Source: Psammoneis japonica
Lineage: Eukaryota
Assembly: GCA_008632985.1 (NCBI GenBank)
Contig: QPGO01000070.1
Coordinates: forward strand, 124,001 to 188,000
Direction: 5' to 3'
Length of the DNA: 64,000 bases
How positions within the stretch are numbered: the stretch's first letter is position 1; each line of letters opens with the position of its first letter. The translations under genes were made by a program, and so were the position numbers. This document shows positions 8,561 through 60,660 of the stretch, piece by piece. The notes under the pieces were generated by a model. The model worked only from the letters and a program-made list of their open reading frames with translations, did no database searches and had not been told where the DNA came from.

Positions 8561-8981
8561 AAACGGCAAAGAATCACCCGTAGGGGATAATAAGTTTCTC
8601 TTTCAAACGGCCATTGTGCTGCTTCGCCGATGAAGATAATATATATGACAAGCTACGCATGCCTCCGACGAAGGCTGTCGCTGACACAATGACAGATACG
8701 AGTGGACCCTCTTTTACCTTCTCATATTTTTGGTGCTCTTGTTAGTGGCGGCGTCATTGGCAGCAATTGTCGAATATGTGTCTTGTGTTTTGCTACCGCA
8801 TGGACGATGGGACCCTTGTTGTTAAATGTACGTAGACATCATCTTGAATGCACGTAATAGCAAAAAGAAGCATTTGCAGTGCATGATATTCCCTGTCCTA
8901 GTGGTAAGCTATAGCTCCAATGGCGATTCTTTCTTTTCAATCGCCATCGATTCCTCTCGTATGTATTTTCGGAGCTTCTAG

Positions 8982-9830
8982 CTAGCTACGCAGCATCGCT
9001 ACAGCATCGCACCGTCCATCCTTTTCCGATTGCTTCTTCTCCTCCACCACAGCCGAAGCCTTCGTTGTCAAAGTAGATTCCAACATCTGTTCCCACTCAC
9101 AACCTCGGCATGTGCATCCCTCGTCATGAGAAGAAATGGAGTCTTCGTCGTCGCTGCTGTCGTCAGCGCGGCTCGCATCAGAGCTACTTTCGGCCCTATC
9201 GCCGCCACCACCCTCTTTACCACCGACTTGATCATCATCTTCCTCCTTCCTTGCAGCAATCGACAATATACCACCTCCTCCAAATCGTGTCAATGCAGCT
9301 CGAGCTGCCAATTCCCTCGCTGGAATTGTCGCTTGCTGCGCCATTGTCGCTTTTCCCTCCTTTGTTCGCTTATCAATCATCTTGGCGCCCTTGAGGAGCG
9401 GGCGACGCTTTTCCTGTTGTTGCAGTGCCCTTGTTCCCATTGCCTGATCAGCGCTACGTTTCCTACTGCCACCTTTCCTCCAACGACGACGACGACGTCG
9501 TTTCTTGGCACCACATTTTTCATTGGAATCAAACAATGGAATCTCGCCATGTTGTGGCACAATCCCACTTGCCGCTTATTGTCCCACCGTAGAAACATGT
9601 CCCGATTGTGTCACAAACGCATTATCACATCCATACGTATCCGTTTTCTTTTTCAACCTCTCCATTCTTGAGCAAAGTCGAGTATTGAATTCGAATTTCA
9701 TCGAGCAATTCATAAAAGGCTGGTGGATGTATATCCTCCAATCCAATGGACGTGTGGGTAATTTCATGAAACATGACTCCCATGACTTGTGTTCCAATGT
9801 CCGAAACTGCCGACGCAGTGCTTGTTGGGT
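8982..9830 (-). pseudogene. WLM (Wss1-like) zinc metalloprotease, 5'-truncated by a LINE and frameshifted
   Basis: Joining frames gives RQFRTLE/QVMGVMFHEITH...IHPPAFYELLDEIRIQY, the WLM HExxH..H..FY pattern, followed by a basic/acidic low-complexity tail. Confidence 0.7.
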
Positions 9831-9849
9831 TCTTGTCGAAGATTGAGTT

Positions 9850-11720
9850 GAATATTGGTGGACATGCCGCATCGGCATATCTCCGCGACCAAAAAGCTCT
9901 AACAACAAGTTTCTTAAGAACAGGCAGAAATGAACAACTGCCATTGAGAAGACCGCTGGGGAAGTGGACAGGCGAACCCACTACGAATTGGTGGTTTTCG
10001 GAACGCTTCGACAGGTTGTACCGTCAGCTGGAAGGATATGTGGAGATGTACTCAAAAACTCAAAAACTCCCCAACGAAGAAGTAACAGAAGAGCCAGTTA
10101 CCAATTAAACGGAAAGGAGGACACTGTGCCGCGCGACGCCAAACCGACTCAGGTCACAAGGAGAGGGATTAAGATGAACCCTACAGGTACTTCGGAGGTA
10201 CTATGGACAGGAGACCCAGAGAGACCTCTGGACAATGTCGAATGGTCCTTTATCCCCTACGGACACCAACCGAATTTGGAAGCTCTTGTTTGAGGCATCG
10301 AAGCAGGCACATCGATTTGCGTAACGGACGGATCCTATAAGGATGGCTTAGCAACCGCAGGAATGATTCTTGTTCCGAGTGAGGGACACTCACACAGATA
10401 TCGTGGAGTTAATCAAACACCTGGAGCAGAGGATGATCTGACACCGTGCCGGGGAGAATTGGGAGGCACATTTGGCACAGTTGCATTTATTCTTCGTCTG
10501 TGTAGACAATTCAACATCAGCTCCGGAAAAGTGTCATTGGCTTGCGACTGTGACCTGGGACTTCGGACATGCTTCTACAATTCATGTGATCCAATCAGGG
10601 GAATGATTCAAGAATTGCCAGTGGTTGTGGAGGCGGCAGATGTAGAAGGACACAAGGACAAACACACTCCTCTCCAAGAGTTGTCTCACTTAGAACAACT
10701 GAACGTCGAAATGGATCTTTTAGCCAAGGCGCACTGGGAAGCACTCCGACAACACGACGACACTGCACCCTGCGAAATCAAGCAACCAACATGGTCGGTG
10801 CAGCTCCGAGGTAGGACCTTTACATCGTGGCGAGAGCAAAGTGTCCTGGATCACATGTGCGGACCCCCCGCAGAAGAGCACTGGCACAAGAAACTAAGAG
10901 CGGAACACTCTCCGGTGGAAATTGATTGGCAATCCCTTGGGAAAGCGATGAAACGCTGCCCCACCTTCAGACAACTCTGGCAACCTGAGTGGAGCGTGCT
11001 TTTTTGCTGGAAGAAGGTGGAGAGCCTGGCATGTCCAAGATGTGGGGAGGATGAAGAAGGCATTGATCACATGCTACGATGCAGGGCGTTTGCAGCTCAA
11101 GAACTGTGGAGGAAAAAGACATCCAACCTGGAAAAGTGGTTGACTGACAACCTCACACACAACCCGACATCCGGAAAGGCATGCTCAGCAGCATTGCGTC
11201 CTGGTGTGAAGACCTTCCCAGCCCCACCCCACGCTCGGATTACCCACACATGCAGGAAGCCTTCGAGGCACAAGAGAACCCAGGTGGAAGCTTGTCAGTC
11301 CGGGGTTTTTTGGCAAGTGAATGGGCTGCAGCACAACAAGCTCGCTGTGACTTCATCAGACGCAGGCACACAGGCGAAAGATGGGTGGCAGGCTCAATGC
11401 AACAGTTGTGGAACACAGCATGGGACATGTGGCAGCAACGCATGTGAGCGTCTGTGTCTCCTGCCTCTGAAGCACGACTCACCACACATGGCATTTTAGA
11501 TGGGGAGATTGAAGAAGAGCATGGTTTGTTCTTCAGTTGTCACTCGGATTCACCTCAGTGTGCCAGGTGGTTTGCAAGGACAATGGAGGAAGTGCAAGCA
11601 AAAGACGTTGACTTTAAATGACATTGGCTGCAGGCAGTGAGGGTGGGAAAATGCACTGCACTCTGTCCATCGACGGACCAATGTTCAGAGCAACAGTCTC
11701 AATCAAGAAGCACTCCACAA
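9850..11720 (+). mobile_element. 5'-truncated non-LTR retrotransposon: RNase H domain plus C-terminal CCHC zinc knuckle
   Basis: TDGSYKDG, RGELGG, CD, VEGHKD and LNVEMDLLAK RNase H motifs; CPRCGEDEEGIDHMLRC knuckle; stops and frameshifts. Ends are approximate. Confidence 0.85.
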
Positions 11721-12405
11721 CTCTGCACGCTGTTGCATTTGTTTTGCAGTTGACGCTCTGACTCCATTCCATGGTTGTTGATTGAAAGGAAAAATCAGGC
11801 GCAACTGAGCCTTGGGTGGCCACTGTGAGAAGCGGTGCAAATTTTTAGATTGAACTGAATTGAGTGCTTGACATGCCACCCACGTTCGCACAATGCAGGG
11901 TTGACATGACAGGCAACTCTCAAGCTCTGGGAGTGCTCTCGCCACTTCGGGACAATCACCATCCTCGAAAACTTCAATGCCCCACATGCAACAACACTGT
12001 CGATCCAACAAGTTGTTGACGGAAGCGACAAACTGAGGAGGCAAGCAAATTTCATTGTTGTTTGTGTTGTTCATGTTGGCAATGGAATTTTCAGAGCCAG
12101 CTTCTTGTTGTTTTGGCTTTGCTTCCGCAGTGACGGGATTTGCTTTCGCAGCAACAATGGAAACGTTGTTCTTGGCATTGCTCAGACTTGCTTCCAAGAT
12201 TGCCCCAACATTTCAATTGATTTCCTGAGAAGTTGACATTTGAGTGTGGAAGGGCAGACAGACTGACAACAATTGTTTCTGGCTGAGTGCTCTTCCACAC
12301 AACATCCATGCATTGACTCTGACAGCCGCAATGATTCCTGTTGACCACAGGTGTTGATGGCATCCAAAAGCACTCAGCCCCCACTTCTTTTGCACAGTGC
12401 ATGGC

Positions 12406-12802
12406 GACGCGTTCCAGCCCCAGGTGGGAGCTCGCAGCACTGACGTGTGACAACAACAACTTTTGTCATCTGTCGCATGTTTCGCACGTAGATTTCCATG
12501 TGTGACATTTAAAAAAAAATTGTCCAGACTCGCTGTTTTGCGAAGCCCCAGACGTTTTATGTGACAAATTTATAGAAACAACAATGCGCCAGTTACATTC
12601 TTCAATGTCTGAAGAATGTAACTGGCTGAGTAAAAAATGATGTGCTTCAATCATGTGCGAGTTTGTGCGTTCGCAAAATTGCCTCATTTTCTGTTGGCGA
12701 TCATTGACATTTTAATTGCCATGTGATTTTGCTGCGGAGCTCGCACGTAGAAGTCTACGGGCCCAATGTCACACGGATTCCCACCTGCATCTGGAACGCG
12801 TC
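12406..12802. mobile_element. MITE, about 397 bp, TIR GACGCGTTCCAG, 4-bp TSD TGGC
   Basis: tggc|gacgcgttccagccccaggtggga ... tcccacctgcatctggaacgcgtc|tggc, with an internal 17-bp perfect hairpin at 12588-12626. Confidence 0.85.
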
Positions 12803-12867
12803 TGGCACACCATGCACAACCTTTGGAGTGGTTTGCAAATTGTGCCCAAGACATTTCATTTGGTGAA

Positions 12868-13871
12868 GACGCGTTCCAGGTCCAGGTGGGTGGGACCTCG
12901 CACCACTGAACTGTGACATCGACAGTTTCATTGACCACTCAGTGGTTGGTGATTGCAGACTTTTTCGTGTCGGTCCGGCAGTCGGGCAGTCGGGGGGTCG
13001 GGCAGTCGGGGGGTCGGGCAGTCGGGTTGTCCGTCTGAATTTGAAAGTGTGTCCCTAGGATTTTAGAACGGGATGGGTTGTTTGGCACAGATGAATTCTT
13101 CGGATTCACAGAATGATCATTGAGGACATGAGAGGTCGTGGGGACATCCTTAAAAATCGACAAATTCCCTACGACGGGTGCGTGGCACGGTTTTTCAGGA
13201 GAGCTCGAAAGTGCTGTAAAATTGGGATTGCCGGCGTGGCATGTTCAAAAATGCACTCAGTTGTGAACAAAGACAATTGATCGTGAATTCTACATGAAAC
13301 AGTCACACTTGGGAAAACATGTCGAACAACAAGTGAGTTTGTGCGATGCGCCATTGTGGCGATAAATTGGAAAAAAAGAGTGTCTGTGCACCTCGCTGCA
13401 GCCCCAAAAAATGGCATGAGACATCAAACACAACGGTCATCCGTGTCACCGGTGCGGTGGCCACGCCACTCAGCCGCCACAACACCGGCCCCGGCGGCAG
13501 GGCCCTGCGTACGTACAGACAACACAGCATGCAACGGCACACACCCACCCACAAAAGCGAAAGACAAGTGGTCAATGCTCCCCGCAGGCCTGGTTTTGAA
13601 TCGCGTCGTATGTCGCGCACGTGCATTTCTACGTGATTTTGGCAAAATTTTGTATGATTTTATAGTGCAATTATCAGTCGATCCATTGAACAACTTTTAA
13701 TGTTTTTTTCTTCTGCGCCATTCTCGAGTGTCTTAAGAATGGCGTAGGGCAGGCGCATCATCCAAAACTTCGAGTACGAACAGGGACAGATGTGCCACAA
13801 ACTTGGCCGTTTTTTTTATGTCAAAGATAAATGTGTCCATTGACCAGAGTACGAACTACAGAGCTCGCACG
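12868..13871. mobile_element. Second MITE-family copy, split by a nested insertion at 12929-13577 (11-bp TIR cattgaccact/agtggtcaatg)
   Basis: Starts gacgcgttccagg. 12868-12928 plus 13593-13871 is colinear with the reverse complement of 46990-47324. Confidence 0.75.
12970..13027 (+). repeat. G-rich short tandem repeat (GTCGGGCA/GTCGGGGG units)
   Basis: gtcgggcagtcggggggtcgggcagtcggggggtcgggcagtcggg. Confidence 0.85.
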
Positions 13872-24360: not shown

Positions 24361-25101
24361 TCAAGACGCTAGCTTATCAAGAGGGTGAACTCTATCCTCC
24401 AATGAAGCGTTAAACGTTACGTCAAAATCGCACGGTGGCGGGCAACACTTGACTATGGATGCTTCCGTGCCTGGCTCTGCTCCAAGAAGATTGTTCATTC
24501 GAGCCATGGCCACCAATTGTTGCTGAAAGCCTTCGTTGCACAGTGCCACATTTCCTCGTTGCTTTCGGACATGCTTTACAGTTGCCAGTACTGGAGTCTG
24601 TGTCGTAATCATGTAGTAGGCTGCGGCAATCAGACCAGACCGATTCATTCCCGCCATGCAATGAATGACGCACTTTCCTTTGCCTTTTCTTGTGGATGAC
24701 TTTATAAAATCAAAAGCTTCCTTCCAGTGATTCTCCAATAGGGGATAAAACGGTTCATCTTCGGAAGTAATGCGATGGTATGAGATGCCATTCTCTTTAT
24801 ACGCCTTGACTACAGTTCTTTTCAGAGCAAGCGGTCCAGCCATGTTCAGAACAGCCGTGATTTCCAGAGCCTTTAAAAGTGCAATAGATTCCACGCTACG
24901 AGCGTTTCCCAAATAGACATGTTCAGTTATTTGGACCGGCAAATCGTTCTGTCGCAATGCTTGGGCTTGAATTTCGTCGTCCGACAATCCCTGTTTCCAG
25001 TCCAGACATTCGGCATCTCGGATTGCCCACACCCAAGACCAATCTTCCTCAATGGATTCATATGCCAGTGATGCCTCACTCTTTGAAGAGTTGGCTCCCA
25101 T
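24361..25101 (-). CDS. Dual-specificity protein phosphatase with possible N-myristoylation site
   Basis: MGANSS start, ITEHVYLGN, IHCMAGMNRS active-site loop, NEGFQQQL. Confidence 0.92.
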   Translation of the reverse strand: MGANSSKSEASLAYESIEEDWSWVWAIRDAECLDWKQGLSDDEIQAQALRQNDLPVQITEHVYLGNARSVESIALLKALEITAVLNMAGPLALKRTVVKAYKENGISYHRITSEDEPFYPLLENHWKEAFDFIKSSTRKGKGKCVIHCMAGMNRSGLIAAAYYMITTQTPVLATVKHVRKQRGNVALCNEGFQQQLVAMARMNNLLGAEPGTEASIVKCCPPPCDFDVTFNASLEDRVHPLDKLAS

Positions 25102-25644
25102 GGTGGAGAATAATAAGCACTTCGGAATGGATTGAGAATCAATCAGCAAATCCAGAATGAGACAACGACAAAGGCAACAAAATACATGCCGACCTCGTAA
25201 AAGTCCTTGGTGAAATCTTGAGTCGTGCGAGTGCAGCAATCCGCGAACGATCAAGTCGTGTTTGAACAGTTCGACTCATGTCCATGTTATCGTAGTAACT
25301 TGAAACTTGGAGGAACACTCCACGTAGAGTAGAGAGATGGTAGAGAGGAGTGCTACCGTAGCAGTCTAAACCTTAACCATCAACGCAGCAATAAAGGCAG
25401 AGAAATAGATGAAACACAAATCCAGGTTTGACGATGCTTTCTTCATCACGCATCGTTTCATCATAGACATTGATCACTGAAAACGTCGGAGACATATGTG
25501 ACTTTACCTGTGTAAGTATTTCCGCGTTATTCAACCAGAAAAATGCGAGGATGCAGTTGTTACTTATAATGTTTTATTCAACTTTGCTTTCAATTGGAGC
25601 GCACTTGTTAAACTTGCACTCGAATCAAGAATGCATCCACCCTT

Positions 25645-33827: not shown

Positions 33828-34913
33828 TATTATTGTGTTGAAAGAAACGTAAACTTTTGTTTCCAGAAAAAATGAATGGACACAGTGAAGAAAAAACTTG
33901 AGGTTGAAGGTGACAAGAATGGCAAAGGCTTTCAATGTAGTACGGTAGCAACAACTTCAGGATGAAAGTGAGACCGCAGTGTGACACGTGACGCGATGCG
34001 TGATGGTGAGATGCGTGACAGCGAAGATCTTTCAGCGATCGGCAGGGATTTGCATCATAAAATTTCTTCGTTAATTAAAATTATTTTGAACATGCCGGTT
34101 TGACTAGAGCAACCACCCAGAGCAGATTGCAAGATGACCGATTGCAAGGTCTTTGATGCAGGCTTCGATGTCTGAGACTTGGACAGATAAAATTCAGGCA
34201 ATGTCATGTCAAACATTGCCTTGTTCATGACTTGAACTGCGTTGTGAAGGCTTTTCACTTAAAAGCAGAAATTAGAAGCTTGAGAAATGACAAGAATTTT
34301 TTCAAGTGCTTTGCATGATTTGATGCAGCTCTGGTTGGCTCCACAATTGAGGAGGCCAAGCAGTTGCTCTGCATGTGAGGCAGAGGCAAGTCACACTTGC
34401 ACATCTGTGCTGATGCTTTCTTGAGATTCTTGAGCATTCTGACATTCAATTTCTCATTGATTTTGTCATGGATTTTTTGCAAATCTCTCCAACGGGCCAT
34501 CTGGGACGCCAACAATCTGGGTCTGACCGTCCGCCACAATCTGGGCATTTCTTGACTTTAATGCCAGATTGTTGTCAACTTGTGAGCCAATTCTCTCCTT
34601 GAACACAATGTGAGAACTGCACAAGTTTACAAGCTTCTAAAACCCAAATCGCTTCTCACTTTTAAGCATGGTCATTCTTTTCACACAATGCTGACCTGCG
34701 CCCCAATTGACATTTGCTGTTTCTCGTTCTTTTAACACAAATGTTGCTGCTTGCAATCCACCCTCATTTTCTCCCAACTCATCCTACATTTTATCTCTTT
34801 GCCATGTCTTTTCAAATCCAAATTCCCAATTGCCACACGTTCCTGCATCCAAACCGCATTTCAGAATGTTTTTTTTTATTTTCGCTTGTCCAGATTTTGT
34901 TGTTTGTTTCAAA

Positions 34914-36044
34914 TTACGTTTGCACACCAGTTTGGTTGGTGGCCATTGTGGCATTTGCTGCCGCTCTGTTGCCTGCAGCCACCACCTGCAATGGCAGGTC
35001 CTCTCCCATCGGCGCCGCCCATCCTTCCTCTCTCTCCTTTCTTTTTTCCTCTCTCTTGCGTTTCTTGTTTTCCTCCTGAGACAAGTTCGTCTTCTCTTGC
35101 CTTCTCTCCTTGAACCATGCACAGAATCCCTGGTTGTTCTCTCTGTCTTTCACCACCCACTGATGCAGATCATTGTGCTTCTTGATCCCCTCCTTGCTCC
35201 ATCCTTGGTGCCTCTTTGCCGATTCCCCCGCCACCTGCACTGTGCACTTTGCAGGAGCAGCGTCTTTCACAGTTGGCTTTCTTCTCCTTGCAACATTTTC
35301 TTCCTTTTCCAATTTCTCTGCCGTGTCCTTCACCTTGTTGCAGTGGTTCAAGTGCGCTGGCAGAGCAAACGCCTCTGACAAAATGGAAAGCCACTCCTGA
35401 AGCATGTCGGTTGTGCTTCTGCCAAACTGCGCTTGTCCCACCACCGTCGGCACCACAGTTTCCAAGAACCATGTGCATGTGTCCTTGTCATTTCTTCCCT
35501 TTGTCAAATCTTTGCAATCCACCAGCGATCCCTCTAAAGCAGCAACTGCACAGACAAAAGCAAAGGAAGCGACACTCATCCCGTTGGACAATCGCCTCCA
35601 ACACAATCAACGGCACGCACACATCTGCTCACCTGTCATTCTCCTCCCAATGTTGTCCTGCACATTGTTCCTCTTTCAGTTGAGTTTGGTCCTGAACACC
35701 TCTTTGCACTCTCCCCAGAATGCCTCCGGTGAAGACGCCATGCTCCTCAACTCCTGCAGAACCAACTTCATGTGATCTCCTCCTGCAGCGAGTTCATGAT
35801 CGAAGATTGTGAACTTGCGACATGGCCAAACACTCTCATTGACAACCTTTGTCAACATTGATGCTGTCAATTTCTCGCCCACTGCCGGTGCATGATCCAA
35901 CACAAGACATCCCTCTGTGGGAGTCACCACCGAACTTGAATCCCCACCTGCACACTGGAATCTGTTCAATTCCCCATGTTCGTTTCTTTGTGCATGCAAC
36001 AAGGCCACCACCGCAGGACTCATGGTGACTTCATGTGACACCAC
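34914..36044 (-). pseudogene. Degenerate TE-associated ORF (SEAFAL...KxT...GWSKEGI...VxxDR type)
   Basis: The motif order is recognisable in ORF 34914-35606, with presumed Tyr codons read as Cys/His. Confidence 0.5.
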
Positions 36045-36789
36045 ACAGACAAATCCAAGAACTCTGTCAGTTCATCAGCCACTCTTTGTCATGTCCTTTC
36101 TCAACCTCACTCACCGCTGGAAGTTGCACTTCCTCCCTCCGTCACTCCTGTGAGAACTGCACCCTCCATCTTTTTTACCTTCCCAATGGCTTCCTCTTGT
36201 TTGGAACTTCCGTCCTTTCCTGTCGCTTTGTGAAAGGCAAGTTGCGAAACGAACGCACTTTGCATGTGATTTTCTCGGTTTTGTTGTTGCTCGCGTGTCC
36301 TCTCTTGATTCAAACAGGTCTTTGTGTCATTTTTGAGTGCTCATTCCCAACCCCATGTTTGAATTTCTGTCAACGTTCCACTGTTTTGAATTGTGCGCCT
36401 TTGTTGGCCAATCCAGTGCACCAATGAAGATTGCAACATCATTTGGATCAATGCCAAACAACACATTGTATCTCCTTGTGTTGGTGCATGCATTGCGCCT
36501 GCTTCCTGATGCAACATCTGTTTCATTTGGTTTGTCAAGTCGTGTCAAACCTCCTGTTTGTTTGTGCAAATCCATGTCGCTCATTGTCTCATGTTAATTT
36601 GTCCCTGTCTTGACAGGTCATTCTCTCCACTTCCCCGACACCACATCTCTCCAATTGCTCTCTCCATTGCCCAAATTATCCAATCCACTTTCAATGGCTG
36701 CCAAAGGGTGTCATTGTCACTGAGACATGGCTGTTGTGAGTCGTTCCCGTTGTGGGAATGCGCGTTCCCTCCATTGCAATCACGTGCCA

Positions 36790-37485
36790 CCAATTGATGA
36801 TCAAATTGGTCATTTTGCTGGCGGTGGTGTGGAATCACATGGTGGTGCGGCAAGCTTTGCCTTCTTTGCCGAGGTCATTTGTAACCCCGCTCTCCCTGCG
36901 GCCCAAATTCAAAGCCCTTTTAATTTCCTCGACGTTGGTGGTGGTGTTGGTGGTTTTGCGATTGCCTGTCGTTTGCTTGTTCCTGCCTGTGATGCCTGCA
37001 GCATCGAGTTCCACCGCCCCCGTCATGATTTGGGCTCTCAGTGGTGTGGTGCCATCTGGCATGACCACACCAGTTGCTGTCCTGCCCTGATCAATCAGGG
37101 CTTCCTCTCTGAAGATGATGCTGTGCATCGGTTGCACCGTCTGAACAACTTAAAGATTTTCTTCAACAACTGCAATGGGCGAATGCTTTTTGACAACAAT
37201 GCGACACAGAACCAACTCAAGGAGATGCTGTCCAATGAGTGTCCTGAAGGCACTGTCGTTGTTTCACTGGACATGATGTTTTGTCTGTCTGCCCAAAAAT
37301 GGAGGCACGGAGCATTCTTTGTTCCTGCCTGTCCAGACAATCTATCGTGGGGAGGTGGTGTCGATGGGCACCTGCTTCACAAGCACACCAAGAAAAGAGA
37401 TGATGCCATGGAGCCAAGGCATTCCACTGGGAACAACCCAGGGTCTGACATCAAACAAAAATTCAAGCCTGCCAAAAGTGGGTGA
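36790..37485 (+). pseudogene. Class I SAM-dependent methyltransferase, DOT1-like, hypermutated
   Basis: S[H]GG, FLDVGGGVG, SIE, KIFFNN, CPEGTVVVSLD follow the DOT1 order YGE / DLGSGVG / GxE / FxNN / GxxIVS. Confidence 0.55.
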
Positions 37486-37640
37486 CTTTGCAGTTCCCCT
37501 TTGTTTGCAATGTAACTTTCTTCCATGCAAGCAATGCATTGTTAATTGGCCCTTTACACAAACCTGCTTTTTGCCTCTACCAACTTGCCACTTCACCAGT
37601 TTTGCATTCCAACAACTGCTTGTTCACACGCTTGCTGTGT

Positions 37641-38093
37641 TCACATGCTTGGTGTGTCGAAATTGTGGACCAGACATGCCATGTTCCTGCGATCCGAGTT
37701 CGTTTTGTTGGGCAAAGCTCGGTGCAACATTCTTGCATAAAAAACAAATGCAGTGCCTGCTTCTCCAACCAGTGATTGTTTTTCCAAACCCAACCCAACC
37801 AAGTGTCTTTCGCGTTCCTTCTCATTCAATGTCACCTCACAACTGTCCGGCCATGTCTCAACTGCACCATTGTGCTCCGTTGTGTCATTGAGGAACAGAA
37901 ACATGGTGAAAATTTTGTTGCCAGGTGATGATTTTGTTTCCACATAATCGCGATGAATTTCCCCCTTTGACCAGAAGTTTGATCTTGAACTTGAAGCAGG
38001 AGCATTTGCTGCTGTGTGCCGGGATGTCTTTCTGCATGAATCACCTGCCAGGGGAAAGCCAGGAATTGACTCCAACATTTTTTCTGCCAACAC
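37641..38093 (-). pseudogene. 2-oxoglutarate/Fe(II) dioxygenase, PhyH-like
   Basis: IHRD...FTMFLFLNDTTEHNGAVETWPDS...GEAGTAFVFYARMLHRALPNKTNSDRR gives the HxD..H..R motif. Confidence 0.75.
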
Positions 38094-40589
38094 AATGCCT
38101 TCCGCCTTGTCCTTTTTGTCAATGGTGAACTCACTGACAAAACGGTGTCCTTCCTTCTCTCACTTGCTGCTTGGTGCCTTGTTTGCCAGTGTTGTTGTCT
38201 GGTTGAGCAGGGGCAGTGGTGTTTTGAATTTTTGCAAGCAGCCTTTTTTTCCTTCCTGGTGCACTCTTTCTTTGGACCCGGCCATCTCACTCTTGACGAC
38301 ATGAGATTTCATTTCACCCGGTTGTGTCAGCAACAACTTGCCATGTTTCTGACACAACATTGTTGGCCAATGGGCAAATTTCCGGCATCCGTTCACAGAA
38401 CACTTCCGCACCATTCTCTGAAAATGCCTGTTCCACCAAATCAAATGGTGCCCAGTCTTTTTTTTTAAGTGGAGCAGACCCAATCCAGCGAAAGTCCACA
38501 TCCATTGCTGCACAACGAAAATGCCTTTCTCACCAAATGTGTGTTGCCAATGGCAGTCTGTCTGTTGGGTGCACCACAGACATTTTTTTCGTAAATGGTC
38601 CCGTGTGATGTGTTGCCAACCGCAGTCCATCTGTCGGGTGCACCACAGACGTTTTTTTCCTAAACAGTCCCGTGTGATGTGATCTTCGTCGATCCTGTTC
38701 ACTGCATGATCTCATTAAATGGGTCATCCCAGCCATCTCAAAAGTGCAGAAAACAATTTTGTTGCACACTGTCCTGCCATTGCTTTTGTGAGACATTTTC
38801 ACATCGCCGCCGTGGCAGACACAAAGGAACAGCTGCCATCCACTGTTCATTGCGCACCACAAACAAACTCTTTTGGAAGAAAGCACATGATGAACAATTG
38901 CACATGATGGGCATCACTTTTTTGTCAATGCACCTGTCTGTCAACAGAGCAATTTGGGGTCACTTTTTTGTTGTTGCAGCTGTGTGTTGACAAAGCAATT
39001 TGGTGTCACTTTTCCATCATTGCACACATTTGTCAACAGAAGAATTTGGTGTCAGGTTTTTGTCAATGCATGTGTCTGCCAATGCATGCCTTTGGCATCA
39101 CTTTTTTGTTCACACACTTGATGCTAGCCTGCACATTGTCGTGGCACAAAGTGCATCTCCCGCAGCAAACCACATTCTCCCAAATCTTGTCCAAGTCGCT
39201 GACCAACTCATGTTGGCAGCGAACAGATGATGTTTGGGCAACTCTGTCTCTTGTCCTCCACAGCCTTGTCATTCCCTTTGCAAAACAACAACCTCAAAAT
39301 GACTCCACCCCAAAGAATGCCACCCAGCCCCTTTCCTGTTACGCCACATCACCGAAATGGAACCGACGAATCTCTTTTTCGTCTGACACATCGTGCTTCT
39401 TTCCCGATGACATTCCACTTGACTCAACCTGCAGCGTTGGCCAATGATCCATCTGGCCGTTGTCCCCCGCTGGTGCATCTGGCCACGTTTGGCACAGAAA
39501 ACAGCCTTGACACCAAATTGAGGCTGTGTCATTCTCCCACACGTTGGGCAAACAAACGCGGTCATGTTCATTCGTCACTCAAAAAAGGGGTTTGACAGAT
39601 CACTCAATCCGCGGCATTGTGCTGATGATGTTTGATGCAAAAATCTTTACGTTCGAGAGCAGTGGGAAGAACAATGTGTGCAACCCAAACCACCTTGGTG
39701 AATTTGCAAAATGGCCGGCACACCCAAGCTGCGTTAGATTGGCTTTGAAGGAGGCAGCCCTCCTGGAGCTGGCTCAACGAAAGAAAAAAGGCATGCAAAA
39801 AAATCATTGATGCTTGCTGCTTCCAAACCAAAAATTTCAAAAGATCTGCAGCGGCACAGGTGAGGGATTGCATCTTGTGCACCACTTCAAATTCCCATCT
39901 GTTTCTCACCTGACAAAATCATTGTTGATGTTTCCTAGAATGAAAGCCATGCTGCCAAAACTCCAACGATTGCAGCTGGTGTTGACTCCGGTGTGGAGGT
40001 TGCCAATGATGACAACAATGACACAACATGGGTGGAGATGGATGTCATGGATGACGAACATCAAATTTTGACTGTTGCAGACAGTGAAGAAGTTTTGCCG
40101 GCAAGGAATTTCATCTGTCACACTGCTTCCATTTCCCATCTGTTCCCTGCCTCGATGGTCAGCCCCAATGAACTCAGGAACATCCACAGGACTGTCCTCT
40201 CCAAGGGCGGATGCACCATCATCTGCAAACAAAACAAATTGGCGGGCGTTTTGGGAGGCTGCGCTGGCGGCAGCAATGTTGGCGGCTGAACGCAATCGAC
40301 CAGAGCATCTGACGGAGGGTGGGCGCAGTCCATTTCCGGCAGAGGGAGGACAAGCTGGAGAAGAACTGTCCACTGGTGTGGGAGGAGATGGAGCTGGATT
40401 CCAAAGGACTTCGGGGAGGGGAGGAGGGGGTTTGTCGTCGGAGAAACCAAACCAGCAGGATCATCATGGTCGTCCAGTGATGCATCGTCTGGAGGGGGAA
40501 AGTGCACTGGCAGCAGCAGAAGATGCGGCATGCAGGCAAAGGGACATTTCCTCCTTTTCACGGCAGGGCAAGTGCTTCTGTAGATGAAG

Positions 40590-40965
40590 GGCGATGTTGG
40601 AAAAGGGGGCACGGCAATGGGGGCATTTGGGTTTGTTGGTGTTGGATCCAAGGGAGCCAATGGAGGCGGAATCCAGAGGATGAGAGGAAAGAGATGTTCC
40701 GCCAGATGAAGAAGACAATTGGGCTGTGCAGCGCAACTGTGTCAATGGGGGAAGGAGACCAGATGCTGCAGTGCAGTGCCAAGATGGGTGACACTGCACA
40801 TTGTTTTCGGAGTCAAATCCACGTTGTCTGCAATGAGGACAACCAAAAGACTTGGTGGAAACGGCGGAATGGAGGCAGTTAGTTGCGATGTGCCTGCTGA
40901 GACCATGCTCGGAAAAGAAACCAGCTCGTTTGCACCATGGACAAACAAGGCCATCAGACGACATG
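40590..40965 (-). pseudogene. Tandem C2H2/C2HC zinc fingers at the start of a degenerate TE ORF
   Basis: CPWCKRAGFFSEHGLSRHIATNC, CPHCRQRGFDSENNVQCH, CPHCRAPFSNIALHLQKH. Confidence 0.65.
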
Positions 40966-42289
40966 GCCGATGTGCAGAGACGAAGGAGTTGAGAAGAGAA
41001 TCGAAAGGGAACAGTGTGTGCAGCAACAATCACTTGGGGACACAGTGAGGGCAGAAACACAGAGAAACAACGTGCGATCGACATGGAAGGTGTCATGGAT
41101 GGATGGGAAGGAAGGATGGAATGGGCAGGGAGAGAAAATTGAGAAGACAGTTAGAGTCCACATTGATGGATGCAGGCGGCGATTTTGATCCAGAAAGTTG
41201 AATGACACACAATCCAGAAACCAAGGTGGAATCAAATGTGCACATGAGGCTTGTCGGATGGGGGGGGGGGCAAACAGCCAAATTGAGGAAAATGGATGTT
41301 TGTTGTTGAACATTTCAGAAAAGCTGACTTGACAAATCAGCACGAGATCTTGGATTGAAGGGAGAGAATATTGGGTTCTATTTCAAGAAATCTTGACAGC
41401 TGGTGCGACACCTGGATCATTGGCGTCCCAGATGCGGCGTGCTTCTAAGATCATCTGAATGATTGTTGCAGGTGCTGGGAGTGTCTTCCATCATGTTGTG
41501 TGGCTGATTCTGCTGCAAAGGTTTTGGCAATGGCTGGGCCACTTTTGCAACTGGCTCTGAGCTTGGTTCTTGTCTGGGCTGCTGGCCTTGTCCCTGCTGT
41601 TGGCTGGATGAGGGCTGGACTTGTTGAAATCACAGTTGACGGTTTTCTTGCTCATGGTGAATTGCGCTGCACTCTTGTCCATTTAAATGGACTGTCTCAG
41701 GTTTGGACACAAGTTGTTGGTTTGGGAACTCAAGCTGGAGTTGGGCTTGGGATGCAAGGCTTGCTGACCCCTTGATGCTTGACCTCATTTCTGGCTGCTG
41801 TGCAGTTGCATTGCAGTTTTGACAAGGTGGCAAAGACAAATCTGAATGGTCGATGTGGTGCAGACTCTTGCAGCATTGGACTTGATTGCTGAGACAGAGC
41901 CCACGTGGGTCATTTGATTTGACTTGGAAATTTCTCCATGATTTGCGACATCATGCTTTTTTGGACAATGACAGCCAGCTCCAATTCTGTGAACTTGGCA
42001 ACAGTCTGAGCATTGTCTTCTTCCAATGGCAATGGCGTGCAACCAATTGGATCATTGAGCTGATGGGTGCATTGCAAAAAAGGTTGGACAGCATCGTTCT
42101 GAGGCTTTTTGAGTGACTCTGCAACAACAGCCTTTTTTGGCATCTGCTGCAATGTCTTGGGACATTTTCATCAATGACACGACCTCTTCACATGCCACTT
42201 TGAAGGTGTCTTGGCTGCAATCTTTACACTGTTCAAGTGCAGCACACCTGGCAGTCACTTTTTGGCATGCCTGACAGGAGGCAGCCAAC

Positions 42290-45200
42290 ATCAGAGGTGG
42301 CAACACAGTGGTTTCCACTTTCCTTTGTAAAATTTTGAGTGTGCATTGTCAAAATTGTCAGCAAGCAACTTAAAAAATGCCAGCAAAAGTGCTTGACAAA
42401 ATGAAGCTGTTTTTTGCATTTCATCTGATGTCTCATTAACTTTTCTTGCACAAGCTTCAATCAAATGCATGCAATGTTCAAGTCAATCAGGAACAAAATC
42501 TGTTTTTTGTCATGCATGGTTTGGTTTCCTTTTGATCGCAATCAATTTGAACTTGGTTTTCACTTCGTCCTCCTCACTCACGTGTGTGTGTCTTTGCACG
42601 TGTGCAGCCTGCAGCAGCACTTCACACACGCACGTGACCCACCTTCATTTTTCTTCACTTTTGTGCAGCCCGTTGGGTCTGCGGCGTTTTCTGCATGTGT
42701 TTTGCACGCGCAATTTTCCACACATTTCACAACAGCACACGCTCTCCCCAAAGTTTGAAAAATGAGAGCGTGCGCTGTTGTGACTCACGTGGATCCTGCG
42801 TGTGGTCGCAAATCTGCAAATCGACAACCGGCCATGGCAGTGAAAGACTTTGCCCCATTGGCCGATGACAGCAGCTCAACGCATGGTGACACCTGCCATC
42901 CTTCTAGTTGGTCAAGATGGGGTTTTATTTGGGCGCAGCTTGAATTTTGTGATCCTGAGTGTGCTGTCATGCACACATGGCCGTTGCTGGTCACAGAATT
43001 GACCATGTTGTGCAGCCACACTTTCAGCCACAGAAGTTGCAGAGGTGCTTTCATTCACAAGAGTTGGGAGCTGCTCCCCAAAACATGTGATGCAGCATGC
43101 ACAATGACAGAGACAATGACAAACACCACACATTTCATGTGTTGGCATGCCCTGCTGTCTTTCACAGCTTTGAAATGTCAAGTGTGGACACTTGTGATCA
43201 ATGCTTTTGTTGTGCATCCTCATGAGCTTTGACAGTTGTGCAGAATTTTCTCAAAGAAAACAACCACCTGTGCTGCTGCTGCAGCTTTCAATGCACTCCT
43301 GGACAAGAGCCCCAGCACCTCAAACAGAGCAGCTGCACAAGGCAGCTGGATCAAGAATCAAGAAGATGGCTCCAACAAAGAGATCACACAGACAAAAAAG
43401 TGATGAAAAAAGTGCTGCACTGTTGGGTTGTGAGACTCGACTTTGCCAAACAGTCAGCACTGACCTCATGCATGAATCCCCAGCCAATGATGTCCTGCTC
43501 CTTGGAAGAGGCAGCCCCCCATGCCACAACACAATTGCTGGGGAGCATGCAGACAATGTGCACACAAGAACACATCATGCACCACCTGCAATGCCCACCT
43601 GACTCTGCACCTCCCGACACACCCTGGATCACTGCATCAGAGCATGCAATGTGGTGATCATCACACATTTTTCATTGTGATTTTTGTTCCTTTCACAGAC
43701 AATTTTTTTGTGGTTTCAAACCTCACCAGTTGTGCAGCTGGCAATGACATGTCAACTGTGATGGATTGACATTTTTGTGCTGTGGGATCAGAACCCCCTC
43801 CCCATGAGAAAAAATGTTTCACCATGAAAAAGGGACACGTTTTCCCCATGAGAGTGCCCACCCTCCATCCCTGCAAAACCTGTAAATTAAAATCATTTGC
43901 ATTGCACCATGAACATTCCATTTTGTTGTTCACAACATTCAAATTAAATGACGCCGACGGAGACAACACCCCAGAGTCTGCAGCAATTGCAGCTCACTTT
44001 CTTCAAGTGCCGCTGCTTGCAGCCACCTTGTTCATTGCCAAAAAAGTGCAAAATGCGTTGTGAGAGCACAATGTGGATGAACTGACACCACCAACAGGAA
44101 CAGCAACACAGACTTGCCGGTGCATCCGGCGCCGCCGATTCTGGAGCAGGTGAGTTTGTAGCAGCTGCTGCAGTTCTCTTTCTTGAAGAGCCACTGCCAG
44201 TGCCAGCAGCCACCTTGTTCATTGTCGAACGGTGCAGAAAACGTTGTGAGAGCACAACAAAGATGAGCCAACCACAACCAATGGAGACGTCAATGCACAG
44301 ACTTGCCTGTGCACCCAGCGCCGCTGATTCTGGACCAGGTGAAGCAACACTGCTCTGATCCACCTCATTCATTGCAAAGAAGTGCAAAATGCTTTGTGAG
44401 AGCACACAGGACAACAACAGCAATCAATTGAAACCGCAACACAGACTTGCTGGTGCATCCACCGTGGCCAATTCAGTCGCTTCTGCCGCCGGTTCCCGAC
44501 CCCTTGAAGCCGATTCAGGACCATGTGAAGCAACATTGCTCTGATCCACCTCATTCATTGCAAAGAAATGTGGGGTGCTTTGTGAGAGTGCACGGGACAA
44601 CAACAGCAACCAATTGAAACCTCAACGTAGACTTGCAGGTGCACCCGCCACCGCCGCCGATTTGGGAGCTTCTGCCACCGGTTCCCGACCCATCGACATG
44701 GAATTGGCAGCTGCCGTGGTTGTTGCAGTCGACCCCCCCTGCTGCTCTTGATCACAAACAGTGGAGAGACTTGGGAAGCCTTTAAAAATGAGCCCAACAA
44801 CTCAGGCAACTTCCAATGGGTTGCCTCCCCACTCTCTGCCTCTGCAGTCTTTCTGGATCTGGGTGCAGAAATTGGAGAAGACGGGTGCAACGTAAGTGAA
44901 CACATCAAAAACAAGTGAAGCTTCTCTTTTTGTGCATGCCTTTTTTGAAGAGTGTCACACATGGCAAAGAACTTTTCACATGTGTGATTCTGAGAGCTGC
45001 AGGAACAAGCACCGCCTGCAGTCTTTCTGGGTCTGGACACAGAAATTGGAGAAGACGGATGTGTTGTCAGCGAATGCATCAAAAACCAACGAACCTCTTT
45101 TTGTACATGCCTTGTTTGGACAGTGCAATTCATGGCAACTTGTGATGATTCTGGATGCAAAACTCTGACATGCGTGATTGCAACAATGCTGCAGAAAAGT

Positions 45201-45955
45201 GAGTTTGTGACATGCATGCACACAACACACAACAACATGCCAGCAGCTCAGCATTCTGGATGCGGCAGATTCGTGACAGCACACTCGCGATCACAAAATT
45301 CAAGCTGCGCCCGAATGAAACCCCATCTTGACCAACCAGAAGGATGGAAGGCATCACCACACATTGAGCTGCTGTCATCGGCCAATGGGGCAAAGTCTTT
45401 CACCACCATGGCCGGTTGTCGATTTGCAGATTTGCGACCACACGTGGGATCCACGTGAATCACAACAGCACGCGCTCTCGTTTTTCAAACTTTGGGGAGG
45501 AGAGGGTGTGCTGTTGTGAAATGTGCAGAAAATTGCACATGCAAAACACATGCTGAAAACACCGTAGACCAACAGGCTGTGCAAAAGTGAAGAAAAATGA
45601 AGGTGGGTCACGTGCGTGCGTGAAGTGCTGCAGACTGCACACGTGCAAAGACACACACACGTGAGTGAGGAGGACAAAGTTAAAACCAAGTTCAAATTGA
45701 TTACGATCAAAAGGAAACCAAACCATGCACAACAAAAAATGGATTTTGATCCCAGCTGAACCAAACATTGCATGCATTTGATTGAAGCTTGTGCAAGAAA
45801 AGTTAATGAGACATCAGACAAAATGCAAAAAACAGCTTCATTTTGTCAAGCACTTTTGCTGGCATTTTTTAAGTTCTGCTTGTTGACAATTTTAACAATG
45901 CACACTCAAAATTTTACAAAGGAAAGTGGGGGCCACTGCATTGTCGCCTCTGATG
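42290..45955. mobile_element. Element bounded by inverted arms of about 680 bp (42290-42970 and 45275-45955)
   Basis: cactttcctttgtaaaattttgagtgtgcattg at 42316 vs its reverse complement near 45895-45928. Similarity is continuous across the arms. Confidence 0.75.
44020..44640. repeat. Internal degenerate tandem repeat, about 4 units of 150-190 bp (mirrored at about 48480-49090)
   Basis: Recurring ttcattgc..a...tgtgagagcaca...cagacttgc..gtgca.cc. Confidence 0.75.
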
Positions 45956-46941
45956 TGCTGAAGCACGTGCGCACTTCTTGCTCCTGGGACCAAGCCAAAG
46001 ACAAGATCAGACGTGTTCCAGCCGCACGTGAACCAAATCGTGCACAAAAACGACATTTGCGCGATTTTTGCGCGGTCCCTAACTTCCGATCGAACTTTCA
46101 CCACCAAAAGTATAGATTTATACAAATGTGGATGTTTTGAAACACTAACAAGACTCGTGTGAGTGTTGCAATATCATTGTTATTGTGGTATCTATGTTTT
46201 TCATTGCGTTAAGAGATTCGTAACACAACGGATGATTTTCGGCGAAAATATTGCCGTTATTCGCATGTTACCTAAATATATATTTCTACAATGCTACTTG
46301 GTAGGTTTTCTACCTACAAAGAAATCTCAGTATAAATATACTGACGAACAATCAGTATTGAGTCTACTGAGGAAGTTTATGATATTTACCCATGAAGACT
46401 TGAATACCCCTCAAAAAACTATTTAAATGCTCATACTCTAGAAGCCTATAAAAGTCAATCCGTCTAAGTATTTTATATGAAAATGATTCATACACTAAAA
46501 GATATATAAATTATGTTCAAAATCGATTGTCGTTTTGTGCGTCACCTGGGACTGGAACACGTCATCAGTGCTGGGCTCTCAGGGCAGAGCCCTGCACACT
46601 TTGAGTTGGCCAAATTTGACAAGACACTGGCAAACTTTCCCTTTTTGTTGCTGGCTGCTTCCCAAATGTTGGCAACAGGGGGCAGATCTTCTTGCTCCAA
46701 AGACCAAAGAAAAAAAGTTTTGGGAAGGAAAATGGCGTGCAGTGCTGGGGCTCAGATTTGGATTGCAAGGGACATCAGAGGCAGCAACATGGTGGTTTTC
46801 ACTTTCCTTTGTAAAATTTTGAGTGTGCATTGTCAAAATTGTCAACAAGCAGAACTTGACAAATGCCAGCAAAAGTGCTTGACAAAATGAAGCTGTTTTT
46901 TGCATTTTGTCTGATGTCTCATTGACTTTTCTTGCACAAGC

Positions 46942-47324
46942 GACAGGTTCTGGGTGGGACTTTTTGTGACATTTGCCCCGTAGAATGCTGCGTGTGAGCT
47001 CTGCAGTTTGTGCTCTGGTCAATGGACATGTTTGTCTTCGACACAAAAAAAACGGCCAAGTTTGCAGTGCATGTGTCCCTGTTCGCACTCGAGGTTTTGG
47101 ACAATGCGCCTGCCCTGCGCCATTCTTAAGACACTCGAGAATGGCGTAGAAGAAAAAAATGTTAAAAGTTGTTCAATGGACAGCCTGACAATTGTGCTAT
47201 AAAATCATACAAAATTTTGCCAAAATCACGTAGAAATGTACGTGCGCGACATGCGGCGCGATTCAAAAAACTGTCGATGTCACAGTTCAGCAGTGCAAGG
47301 TCCCACCCAGACCTGGAATGCGTC
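46942..47324. mobile_element. MITE-family copy inserted in the right IR arm, TSD AAGC
   Basis: Empty site cacaagcttcaa at 42449. Filled site cacaagc|gac...gcgtc|aagcttcaa. Confidence 0.88.
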
Positions 47325-50164
47325 AAGCTTCAATCAAATGCATGCAATGTTTGGTTCAACTAGGATCAAAATCCATTTTTTGTTGTGCATGGTTTGGTTT
47401 CCTTTTGATCGCAATCAATTTGAACTTGGTTTTAACTTTGTCCTCCTCACTCACGTGTGTGTGTCTTTGCACGTGTGCAGTCTGCAGCACTTCACGCACG
47501 CACGTGACCCACCTTCATTTTTCTTCACTTTTGCACAGCCTGTTGGTCTACGGTGTTTTCAGCATGTGTTTTGCATGCGCAATTTTCTGCACATTTCACA
47601 ACAGCACACCCTCTCCTCCCCAAAGTTTGAAAAACGAGAGCGCGTGCTGTTGTGATTCACACGTGGATCCCACGTGTGGTCGCAAATCTGCAAATCGACA
47701 ACCGGCCATGGCGGTGAAAGACTTTGCCCCATTGGCCGATGACAGCAGCTCAATGTGTGGTTGTGCCTGCCATCCTTCTGGTTGGTCAAGATGGGGTTTC
47801 ATTCGGGCGCAGCTTGAATTTTGTGATCGCCAGTGTGCTGTCACGAATCTGCCGCATCCAGAATGCTGAGCTGCTGGCATGTTGTTGTGTGTTGTGTGCA
47901 CGCACATCACAAACTCACTTTTCTGCAGCGTTGTTGCAATCACGCATGTCAGAGTTTTGCATCCAGAATCATCACAAGTTGCCATGAATTGCACTGTCTC
48001 CAAACAAGGCATGTGCAAAAAGAGGTTCGTTGGTTTTTGATGCATTCGCTGACAACACATCCGTCTTCTCCAATTTCTGTGTCCAGACCCAGAAAGACTG
48101 CAGGCGGTGCTTGTTCCTGCAGCTCTCAGAATCACACATGTGAAAAGTTCTTTGCCACATGTGACACTCTTCAAAAAAGGCATGCACAAAAAGAGCTTCA
48201 TTTGTTTTTGATGTGTTCACTTACGTTGCATCCGTCTTCTCCAATTTCTACATCCAGATCCAGAAAGACTGCAGAGGTGGAGAGTGGGGAGGCAACCCAT
48301 TGGAGGTTGCCTGAGTTGTTGGGCTCATTTTTAAAGGCTTCCCAAGTCTCTCCGCTGTTTGTGGTCAAGAGCAGCAGGGGGGGTCGACTGCAACAACCGC
48401 AGCAGCTGCCAATTCCATGTCGATGGGTCGGGAACCGGTGGCAGAAGCTCCCAAATCGGTGGCGGCGGATGCACCTGCAAGTCCACATTGAGGTTTCAAT
48501 TGGTTGCTGTTGTTGTCCTGTGCACTCTTACAAAGCATTTTGCATTTCTTTGCAATGAATGAGGTGGGTCAGAGCAATGTTGCTTCACATGGTCCTGAAT
48601 CGGCTTCGCGGGGTCGGGAACCGGCGGCAGAAGCAACCGAATTGGCCATGGCAGATGCACCAGCAAGTCCATGTTGCAGTTTCAATTGGTTGCTGTTGTT
48701 GTCCCATGCACTCTCACAAAGTGTTTTGCACTTCTTTGCAATGAATGAGGTGGATCAGAGCAGCGTCACTTCACCTGGTCCAGAGTCAGTGGCGCTGAAC
48801 ACACAGGCAATTCTGTGCATTGATGTCTCCATTGGTTGTGGTTGGCTCATCTTTGTCATGCTCTCACAATGTTTTCCACACCATTCGGCAATGAACAAGG
48901 TGGCTGCCAGTGCTGGCAGCGGCTCTTTAAGAAAGAGAGCTGCAGCAGCTGCTGCAAACTCGCCTGCTCCAGAATCGGTGGTGCCGGATGCACCAGTGAG
49001 TCCATGTTGCTGTTCCTGTTGGTGGTGTCAGTTCATCCACATTGCACTCTCACAACACATTCTGCACTTTTTTGGCAATGAACAAGGTGGCTGCAAGCAG
49101 TGGCACTCAAAGAAAGTGAGCTGCAACTGCTGCTGCAGACTCCAGGGTGTTGTCTCCATTGGCATCATTCAATTTAAATGCAAACAACAAAATAGAATGT
49201 TCATGGTGCAACGCAAATGATTTCAATTTACAGGTTTTGCAGGGACAGAGGGCGGGCACTCTCACAGGGAAAACGTGCCCCTGTTTCATGGTGAAACATT
49301 TTTTCTCATGGGGAGGGGGGGTCTGATCCCACAGCACAAAATGTCAATCTGTCACAGTTGACATGTCATTGCCAGCTACACAACTGATGAGGTTTGAAAC
49401 CACAAAAAAATTGTCTGTGAAAGGAGTGAAAATCACAATGAAAAGATGTGTGATGATCACTGTGTTGCGCGCTCTGATGAACAAGACGGAAATGTGACAC
49501 ACACCAGGAGCCCTTCACCGACATCCAGACACAGGGTGTTGACATTTTCATCAAATGACTTGTCTGAGCACTCTGGGTGAACAACGCCCCCGCAAGGGCA
49601 GTTTTGTGCTGACATGGCCGTTCAGAACAAAATTCACAGAACCAGAAGATGTCAGATGGGTGGCTTCATGTGCAGAAGCTGCTGAGGTCAAGGCAGACAG
49701 ATGGATAGAATCGATGGGGAGCAAATTTACCATGCCCTGTGGCGCCAGATGACAGTTACAAAGTGGTTGAAAAGAAGTTGACTGACAATCGAATTCTTGA
49801 GCCAAAGTGAGAGATGAGCTTTAGAACCGCGTTCTCAAAGGTCCACGTAGGGAACACGTAGACGACCTATTGAGAGATCTTGAAATGACTTATGGATGAC
49901 CCTTTATCAGTACTGTACATACTGTAGGTTGCAGTCAATGCATGGAGATCGCACTGTACTGCACCTACTACTTAAGAGCAATGAGAACCTTGGACAGAAT
50001 CGAATCCGAGCCATAAGAAGCCATAAGTCATTGGTAACAATTATGGCGTTGATGTTAACAAACACAGGGATAATAGGCCAGGTGGTGAGTCACACGGCAA
50101 AAACTCCAAAACACCAATTCCAAATTTTCAATACAAGGAAAGCATCAGCCAAGCAGAACACACC

Positions 50165-60636: not shown

Positions 60637-60660
60637 TTTTCTCGAGCAAAAGGAAATATG

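Follow-up and report, generated by a model that had tools for sequence, protein, structure and literature searches.

The closest described system is that of the rhizarian alga Bigelowiella natans, for which the available text of a preprint reports two viral regions with 231 mutations, of which 230 were A>G or T>C, all of them at TpA (Mettrop et al., bioRxiv 10.64898/2026.01.13.699255). This hypermutation, measured in mutation-accumulation lines and active in only some of them, ran about 1000-fold above background; the same spectrum was described in a transcriptionally silent single-copy region, as were clusters poor in TpA and rich in CpA/TpG, including transposon domains, and ADAT2 was proposed as a candidate enzyme (bioRxiv 10.64898/2026.01.13.699255). 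Repeat-induced point mutation (RIP) of the ascomycetes, as far as the accessible part of its account goes, likewise hypermutates repeats through transitions at specific dinucleotides and spills over into single-copy DNA (PMC9453070). The diatom Phaeodactylum tricornutum is described as having DNMT5-dependent CG methylation of transposons and silent chromatin with H3K9me/H3K27me3; such methylation, on that partial account, would explain CG>TG/CA in the blocks examined here but, acting on C, cannot give TA>TG/CA (PMC9998398).

The window analysed in the present work, by which we mean the whole stretch of 64,000 nucleotides, is diatom DNA, the named homologues of the gene interrupted within it coming from Thalassiosira and Bacillariaceae. 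It is an alternation of open DNA, with a TA observed/expected ratio (o/e) of about 0.57, and blocks that are nearly free of TA: TA o/e lies below 0.2 in 44 of 126 N-free segments of 500 bp, and across these segments falling TA is accompanied by rising TG and CA with unchanged GC content. A CG o/e of at least 0.4 is retained in 26 of the 44 low-TA segments, and a TA o/e of at least 0.3 in only one of 19 CG-poor ones. Between haplotypes, 64 TA sites differ and 128 are the same in TA-poor blocks, as against 1 and 177 in open DNA; the haplotype differences in old blocks (33% of TA and 26% of CG sites) were left out of the rates because they are not polarisable.

The largest TA-free block (34000-49500) spans CG o/e values from 0.04 to 0.89 and contains a TA-rich island at 46001-46500. 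At 12400-13700, flanked by two TA-free blocks, is a repeat of very high copy number that contains direct repeats and has an intermediate TA content, and 352 N form a run within 60501-61000. Several DNA-methylase matches of the genome (L095-L097; contigs C301 and C297) lie inside TA-poor blocks with TA o/e of 0.02-0.13 and are probably transposon-borne methyltransferases.

In the features that can be read from sequence, the process matches the TpA hypermutation of Bigelowiella and may work in the same way: as far as that system is described, both consist of A>G and T>C changes that fall almost exclusively at TpA, hit either strand of the chromosome, postdate integration and lie in local blocks. 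The mutations of the rhizarian alga were measured directly, whereas those of the diatom are read from copies and alleles; and, going by the preprint's available text, saturated transposon blocks, CpG decay alongside, fronts inside elements and the conversion of broken host alleles are found only here. The words diatom, CpG, spread, boundary and flank are absent from the preprint's main text (bioRxiv 10.64898/2026.01.13.699255), and no diatom report of TpA loss was found in the literature searched, subscription journals and bioRxiv supplements lying outside that search.

The LINE fragment and the WLM gene that it interrupts

A 5'-truncated non-LTR retrotransposon fragment lies at 9890..11860 on the plus strand; the limits of 9850-11720 given to it in the original prediction give way, on alignment with its sibling, to 9890 and approximately 11860. 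It holds the 3' end of ORF2 (RNase H-like motifs and a zinc knuckle), a 3' UTR and a short-repeat tail, and carries several stops, frameshifts and deletions. Among the 22 matches that a search of its own genome returned, L002 and L003 are the closest, at 84% over 9890-11863. These two are 98.5% identical to each other, flanks included, and sit on the overlapping ends of contigs C122 and C84, which agree at 97-99.5% over about 36 kb, insertions aside; we infer that they would be two haplotypes of one locus and, so read, they amount to only one independent close sibling. More distant family members (L004-L007, 65-69%), all of them TA-poor, were left out as ancestors.

The sibling extends about 6 kb further upstream than the window copy and aligns along homologues of 1,600-1,900 amino acids. 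In a domain scan of six long homologues, P0072 exceeded the cut-off for Exo_endo_phos and RVT_1, with a weaker zf-RVT match, two others gave a single weak match each (one of these to RVT_1) and three gave none. Since the sibling aligns along long ORF2 homologues, one of them with Exo_endo_phos and RVT_1, the window copy is assigned to the non-LTR retrotransposons as a 5'-truncated member. The family has features of the APE-RT type, namely endonuclease and RT in the ORF2 of a homologue, 5' truncation and a simple 3' tail, and it resembles the diatom non-LTR retrotransposons (APE, RT, RNase H), presumably those named 'Ambal'-like, in that a long ORF2 encodes endonuclease, RT and a zinc knuckle, whereas the window copy is only a dead 2-kb 3' fragment. 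The zinc knuckle (CPRC..H..C, zf-RVT-like; 11032..11082, plus strand) has weak zf-RVT matches in the sibling and homologues. Pfam and PDB searches with the RT and endonuclease pieces of the mutated sibling returned no informative hit, and Pfam searches with the LINE, sibling and homologues returned no RNase H hit; the RNase H label of the 3' region is a provisional one, taken from its motifs.

The predicted gradient of TA inside this single LINE is real. Compared with the 84% sibling, TA is kept at 20 of 23 informative sites in the left 560 bp and at 4 of 30 in the right 960 bp. In the TA-retaining part (9890..10450, plus strand) 18 of the 20 TA of the window stand opposite TG or CA in the sibling (nine TG and nine CA in the site list) and two are TA in both; one site is the reverse, and two pair a TG of either copy with a CA of its counterpart. 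Within the converted part (10901..11860, plus strand; aligned over 10901-11862) a single TA stands opposite TG or CA, three are TA in both, three are lost here and TA in the sibling, and 23 are TG-versus-CA sites, which mark a lost palindromic step, TA or CG. At CG the same part has 10 CG/CG, 18 CG/y and 10 y/CG (window/sibling). Background divergence from the sibling is similar on the two sides, 35/322 on the left and 68/765 on the right.

By simple count TA falls from 22 in 561 bp (9890-10450) through 9 in 450 bp (10451-10900) to 5 in 962 bp (10901-11862), with P=6e-6 between the first and last parts. In the transition zone (10451..10900, plus strand) kept and lost TA are interspersed, with six kept and three lost at 10431-10730 and two kept and six lost at 10731-11000, and the midpoint of the front falls at about 10,730-10,810, that is at 10,732 in a step fit and 10,808 in a logistic fit, the two being equally good (lnL -28.2 and -28.7; flat, -46.4). 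TA had been expected to become rare from about 10450 with CG still common; the TA-free, CG-rich stretch is there, but TA is only halved over 10451-10900 and becomes rare from about 10900. The further thinning of CG towards the right is by itself a weak trend (27/561, 18/450 and 28/962 bp; P=0.087, pairwise P=0.055).

We apportioned the TG-versus-CA sites with a Poisson model under three assumptions on background transitions and with 100 bootstraps. Ancestral TA per 100 bp is estimated at 3.7-4.2 on the left and 2.4-3.6 on the right (intervals approximately 0.5-5.6), and the fraction of TA lost at 0.07-0.16 in the left, 0.42-0.57 in the middle (with wide intervals) and 0.83-0.90 in the right part, as against 0.04-0.15, 0.08-0.30 and 0.47-0.57 for CG. 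TA loss exceeds CG loss in 90-96% of bootstraps for the right part and 65-83% for the middle, where (10451-10900) the two estimates overlap; the TA and CG fronts coincide within error, and the ratio of TA to CG loss lies far below the approximately 13-fold found in a young copia family.

Evidence independent of this model comes from seven columns that are mostly Tyr among 152 homologues. The window keeps TAC at 10099 and, from 10447 on, has Tyr at none of six: four codons are one step away (TGC at 10447, CAC at 10879, TGT at 11346 and CAT at 11520), one is CGC (11343) and one an unrelated CTG (10846). Two right-side Tyr of two nearer homologues (10576 and 11241) are kept in the window. The motif TDGSYKDG (10324..10347, plus strand) does retain its Tyr codon TAT, at 10336, opposite CAC in the sibling, and PCRGEL (10444..10461, plus strand) does replace an expected Tyr, with TGC at 10447 where the sibling has CAC and 72% of 138 aligned homologues have Tyr. 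Because the homologues are mostly Tyr at the converted columns, the ancestor of the LINE was not TA-poor; a family consensus poor in TA in its 3' half is contradicted by these columns and by the 23 TG/CA-discordant sites at 10901-11862, against two at 9890-10450. Short-read contigs, possibly from the assembly's own sample, are identical to the window over 9833-10480, 10547-10984 and 11415-12045, none of them spanning the element.

The LINE interrupts one allele of a minus-strand WLM-domain gene, recognised by blastx to WLM homologues, and splits it into two fragments that are each single copy in the assembly. The 5' part (11860..12205, minus strand) has no TA in 345 bp and has changed conserved Tyr and Arg codons; the 3' part (9075..9889, minus strand), which is frameshifted, has 20 TA in 816 bp and keeps its conserved Tyr (P=2e-4 for TA in the two fragments). 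Further right lie very high-copy repeats (12206..13500), with 433 candidates for 12206-12345; read depth runs into the thousands there, and 12204 is a loose end. The empty allele is found in a read contig that joins 9862 to 11930, with 134 letters across the joint, and diverges at 12204; the eight listed of its 18 differences from the right fragment include two with TA in the allele and TG or CA in the window, and three with CG in the allele and TG in the window. TA conversion passes the right border of the LINE into unique host DNA that is boxed in by two insertions. The predicted domain boundary that crosses element borders is therefore found on the right, in the 345 bp of host DNA without TA and the two listed sites at which the empty allele has it, but not on the left, where the front lies about 0.9 kb inside the LINE.

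No target-site duplication was found at the LINE, about 14 host codons being missing at the site instead; an 8-bp duplication guessed from the flanks was dropped, as the homologues give the WLM frame and the loss of about 14 codons. The alleles differ by about 3.5% over 8820-9862. To the left of the LINE seven of 31 listed allele differences involve TA, in both directions (three and four), which is more than expected for open DNA, though these are unpolarised. Small frameshifting insertions and a premature stop occur in the 3' part of the gene (9075-9889), and the empty allele lacks one or more of the frameshifts.

Rates of loss in copia copies and in a delta carbonic anhydrase allele

The original prediction held TA conversion to be at least as fast as CpG decay, and three comparisons bear it out strongly, the LINE itself only moderately (0.83-0.90 against 0.47-0.57). 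Of the 40 copies listed (521 candidates) for a young copia family, the best 20, about 97% identical, were aligned; among them the loss of TA per copy ranges from 7 to 74% (mean 53%, 179 sites) and that of CG from 2 to 13% (mean 5.6%, 412 sites), approximately 13-fold in rate terms. The events number 1864 at TA and 405 at CG, about four to one, and other changes are rare: AA>AG 71/10660 (0.67%), GA>GG 82/15000 (0.55%) and C>T outside CpG 0.21%. Both TG and CA occur among the copies at 139 of the 179 TA sites, the copies sharing ancestry.

The LTR pairs of 18 of these copies, from which L068 and L080 were excluded as partial or nested, remove the problem of shared ancestry and were used for this reason. 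Their 5' and 3' LTRs differ at 135 of 287 TA, 24 of 369 CG and 17 of 3624 other columns, and since the two LTRs of one copy differ, the change at TA is post-insertion. One copy's two LTRs may be hit unequally (2 versus 12 TA lost, or 0 versus 9): in six copies the 3' LTR has lost 9-12 TA and the 5' LTR 0-4, and in one copy the reverse holds. The 5' LTR and leader are spared in several heavily converted copies among L066-L084, even where the flanks are TA-poor. Copia A>G is skewed approximately 60:40 towards the sense strand of the element, and CG loss is asymmetric too (144 versus 261).

The third comparison concerns a host gene for delta carbonic anhydrase (delta-CA; PF10563); on C122 two insertions, one of them a gypsy element, lie in the promoter region of its allele. 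From 24534 to 25340, the initial 807 bp, this allele has lost 18 of the 22 TA of the C84 allele (12 to TG, six to CA, none in reverse) and three of 45 CG; 18 of all 23 mismatches lie at TA, none falls in the last 288 bp, and three Tyr remain of 13, ten having been lost. Seven other copies of this multi-copy family (82-85%), the C84 allele and six paralogues, are intact with 13-15 Tyr each, and six of the seven have a TA-poor stretch 750-1500 bp upstream. The converted allele (L025:4534-5625; C122:24534-25625) keeps an open frame and would pass annotation as a normal gene. The neighbouring gypsy element (C122:19555-24454), with an open frame of 1409 codons, is TA-poor in its interior, at 3-8 TA per 300 bp, and TA-rich in the integrase end and most of both LTRs, with CG retained throughout; the LTR adjoining the converted allele retains most of its TA. 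Five of the six differences between the gypsy LTRs involve TA or TG/CA, all within the last 60 bp.

Mechanism and competing explanations

The change is specific to TpA, acts on both strands and after insertion, is cis- and allele-specific on host genes and runs several-fold above CpG decay. We consider the best explanation as a whole, at a probability of roughly 0.55, to be a conversion of TpA in silent DNA that shaped the gradient in the LINE. One WLM allele would have been broken by the LINE fragment together with another insertion at 12206, and the stretch from about 10,800 to about 12,400 would have turned silent; a host process acting on chromosomal DNA would then replace A by G in the TpA steps of one strand or the other, turning TA into TG or CA, with deamination of 5mC wearing down CpG in the same stretch more slowly. 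The gradient would arise because the left part of the LINE is not within the marked domain or joined it at a late stage.

It is probable that silencing, rather than homology or distance alone, directs the conversion. TA loss was predicted to be partly independent of CpG decay, and the absence of an effect of distance to the nearest CpG (rho -0.11, P=0.13, copia), together with TA losses of 7-74% beside CG losses of 2-13%, agrees with this, whereas the correlation of the two losses across copia copies (rho 0.70), in the same blocks, does not. Plain distance-dependent spreading is contradicted by seven of eight delta-CA copies being intact and by the sparing of copia ends, which shows no relation to the TA content of the flanks (rho -0.07, n=36; L069 lacks usable flanks and the left part of L080 is misaligned); the prediction that spared copia ends adjoin open DNA failed in this comparison. 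Fronts inside elements are common (the LINE, copia LTRs, the gypsy interior), and the pattern would suit a silent state that depends on position, taken on by DNA that is broken and not expressed, and resisted by intact genes.

Whether the chemistry is enzymatic adenine deamination by a candidate enzyme of the TadA/ADAT type, as proposed for Bigelowiella, we judge to be an even call. The A of TpA is mutated most before C (0.36) and least before A (0.17) or G (0.18) at the 179 copia sites; the target of TadA is UAC and the preference of ADAR is UAG, so the preference for A before C leans towards a TadA/ADAT-like enzyme. Genes of the TadA/ADAT type are universal, and the deaminases of this genome, of the TadA/ADAT type and ADAT1-like (five PF14437 matches, and four PF02137 matches at two loci), are ordinary housekeeping types by their motifs, with nothing linking them to DNA. 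No strand-coordinated runs of TA changes were found in copia (0.537 observed, 0.536 +/- 0.012 permuted), which argues against a processive single-strand deaminase. The change being symmetric, on both strands and in place, RNA editing before reverse transcription, a WA polymerase signature and GC-biased conversion are excluded. ADAR-type editing of retroelement RNA gives A>G on the sense strand only and before integration, and was rejected on the two outcomes seen on one strand, the LTR-LTR differences and the host gene converted in place; GC-biased conversion was rejected on the change of less than 1% at other A/T sites and the unchanged GC content of the blocks.

Sequence does not distinguish A>G on one strand from T>C on its complement, nor deamination of adenine from miscoding by a modified T or A, and the same targeting might act through a modified base in silent TpA (5hmU/5fU, O4-methyl-T or 6mA), or an alkylation by-product of methyltransferases, that miscodes as 5mC does in CpG decay. 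The symmetric dinucleotide specificity, the lack of strand-coordinated runs and the correlation with CG loss fit such a passive mark, 27 DNA-methylase matches are present in the genome, and 5hmU on dinoflagellate transposons is described in the accessible part of one report (PMC11572971). We nevertheless hold a modified base to be rather unlikely: a rate several-fold above 5mC deamination would be high for a passive mark, a mark of TpA context was not found in the literature searched, and the genome search gave no Tet_JBP match, although a control search was equally blank. An improbable alternative is a RIP-like process triggered by homology, in which paired repeats are mutated, their ends under-mutated and neighbouring single-copy DNA affected by leakage. 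The targets are indeed mostly repeats, delta-CA is a multi-copy family (82-85%), and leakage of RIP into single-copy DNA is documented in the available account (PMC9453070); yet the sibling matches the spared 9890-10450 no less closely than the converted part (35/322 and 68/765), a single copy can have its identical 5' and 3' LTRs hit unequally, the seven homologous delta-CA copies are untouched, and the target described in the text available for Bigelowiella is single-copy (bioRxiv 10.64898/2026.01.13.699255). The direction of change is also opposite: here TpA is consumed and A:T becomes G:C, as fixed by the Tyr codons, and homology dependence is not supported, though a homology trigger modified by position effects may act. 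RIP itself is C>T and creates TpA.

A mosaic of an unconverted and a converted copy, made by recombination or gene conversion, or an assembly chimera, might also give a gradient, and the step model does fit as well as the logistic and no read contig spans the whole element. This we consider very unlikely, in view of the interleaving of kept and lost sites over 10431-11000, the similar background divergence to left and right, the short-read contigs without a difference (possibly of the same sample), the lack of an unconverted donor among the 22 matches and the continuation of TA loss into the host gene. Least credible is that TA changes are collateral of CpG decay, left by error-prone repair around deaminated 5mC. 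TA and CG are lost in the same blocks (rho 0.70), and CG loss is slightly higher beside lost TA (180/3112 versus 98/2568). The WA signature of polymerase eta, however, raises A>G at AA as well as at TA, and here AA>AG (0.67%) is not above GA>GG (0.55%); TA events outnumber those at CG about four to one, and distance to CpG has no effect on TA loss.

Returning to silent-DNA conversion, a more far-reaching version of it, which we put forward tentatively and as the less probable outcome, is a host DNA adenine deaminase that would be recruited to silenced chromatin with no need of individual 5mC in both Rhizaria and diatoms. It could form an SAR-wide anti-transposon system, approximately tenfold over CpG decay, that finishes promoter-cut host alleles, most Tyr codons being replaced while the haplotypes diverge by less than 1%.

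Consequences for diatom genomes

The conversion of TA removes stop codons and makes none; dead elements and alleles therefore retain open frames of great length and may be taken for genes in annotation. Ages based on LTRs are inflated in such genomes, because 135 of the 176 LTR differences counted here lie at TA. Published until now from a single rhizarian alga, the process is here extended to diatoms, and what is added to the preprint, as far as its available text goes, is the rate relative to CpG decay, fronts that halt inside elements, and damage confined to one allele of host genes that adjoin insertions. Since diatoms can be transformed, the mechanism is open to experiment, and, if enzymatic, it would be a natural A-to-G editor of DNA serving genome defence.
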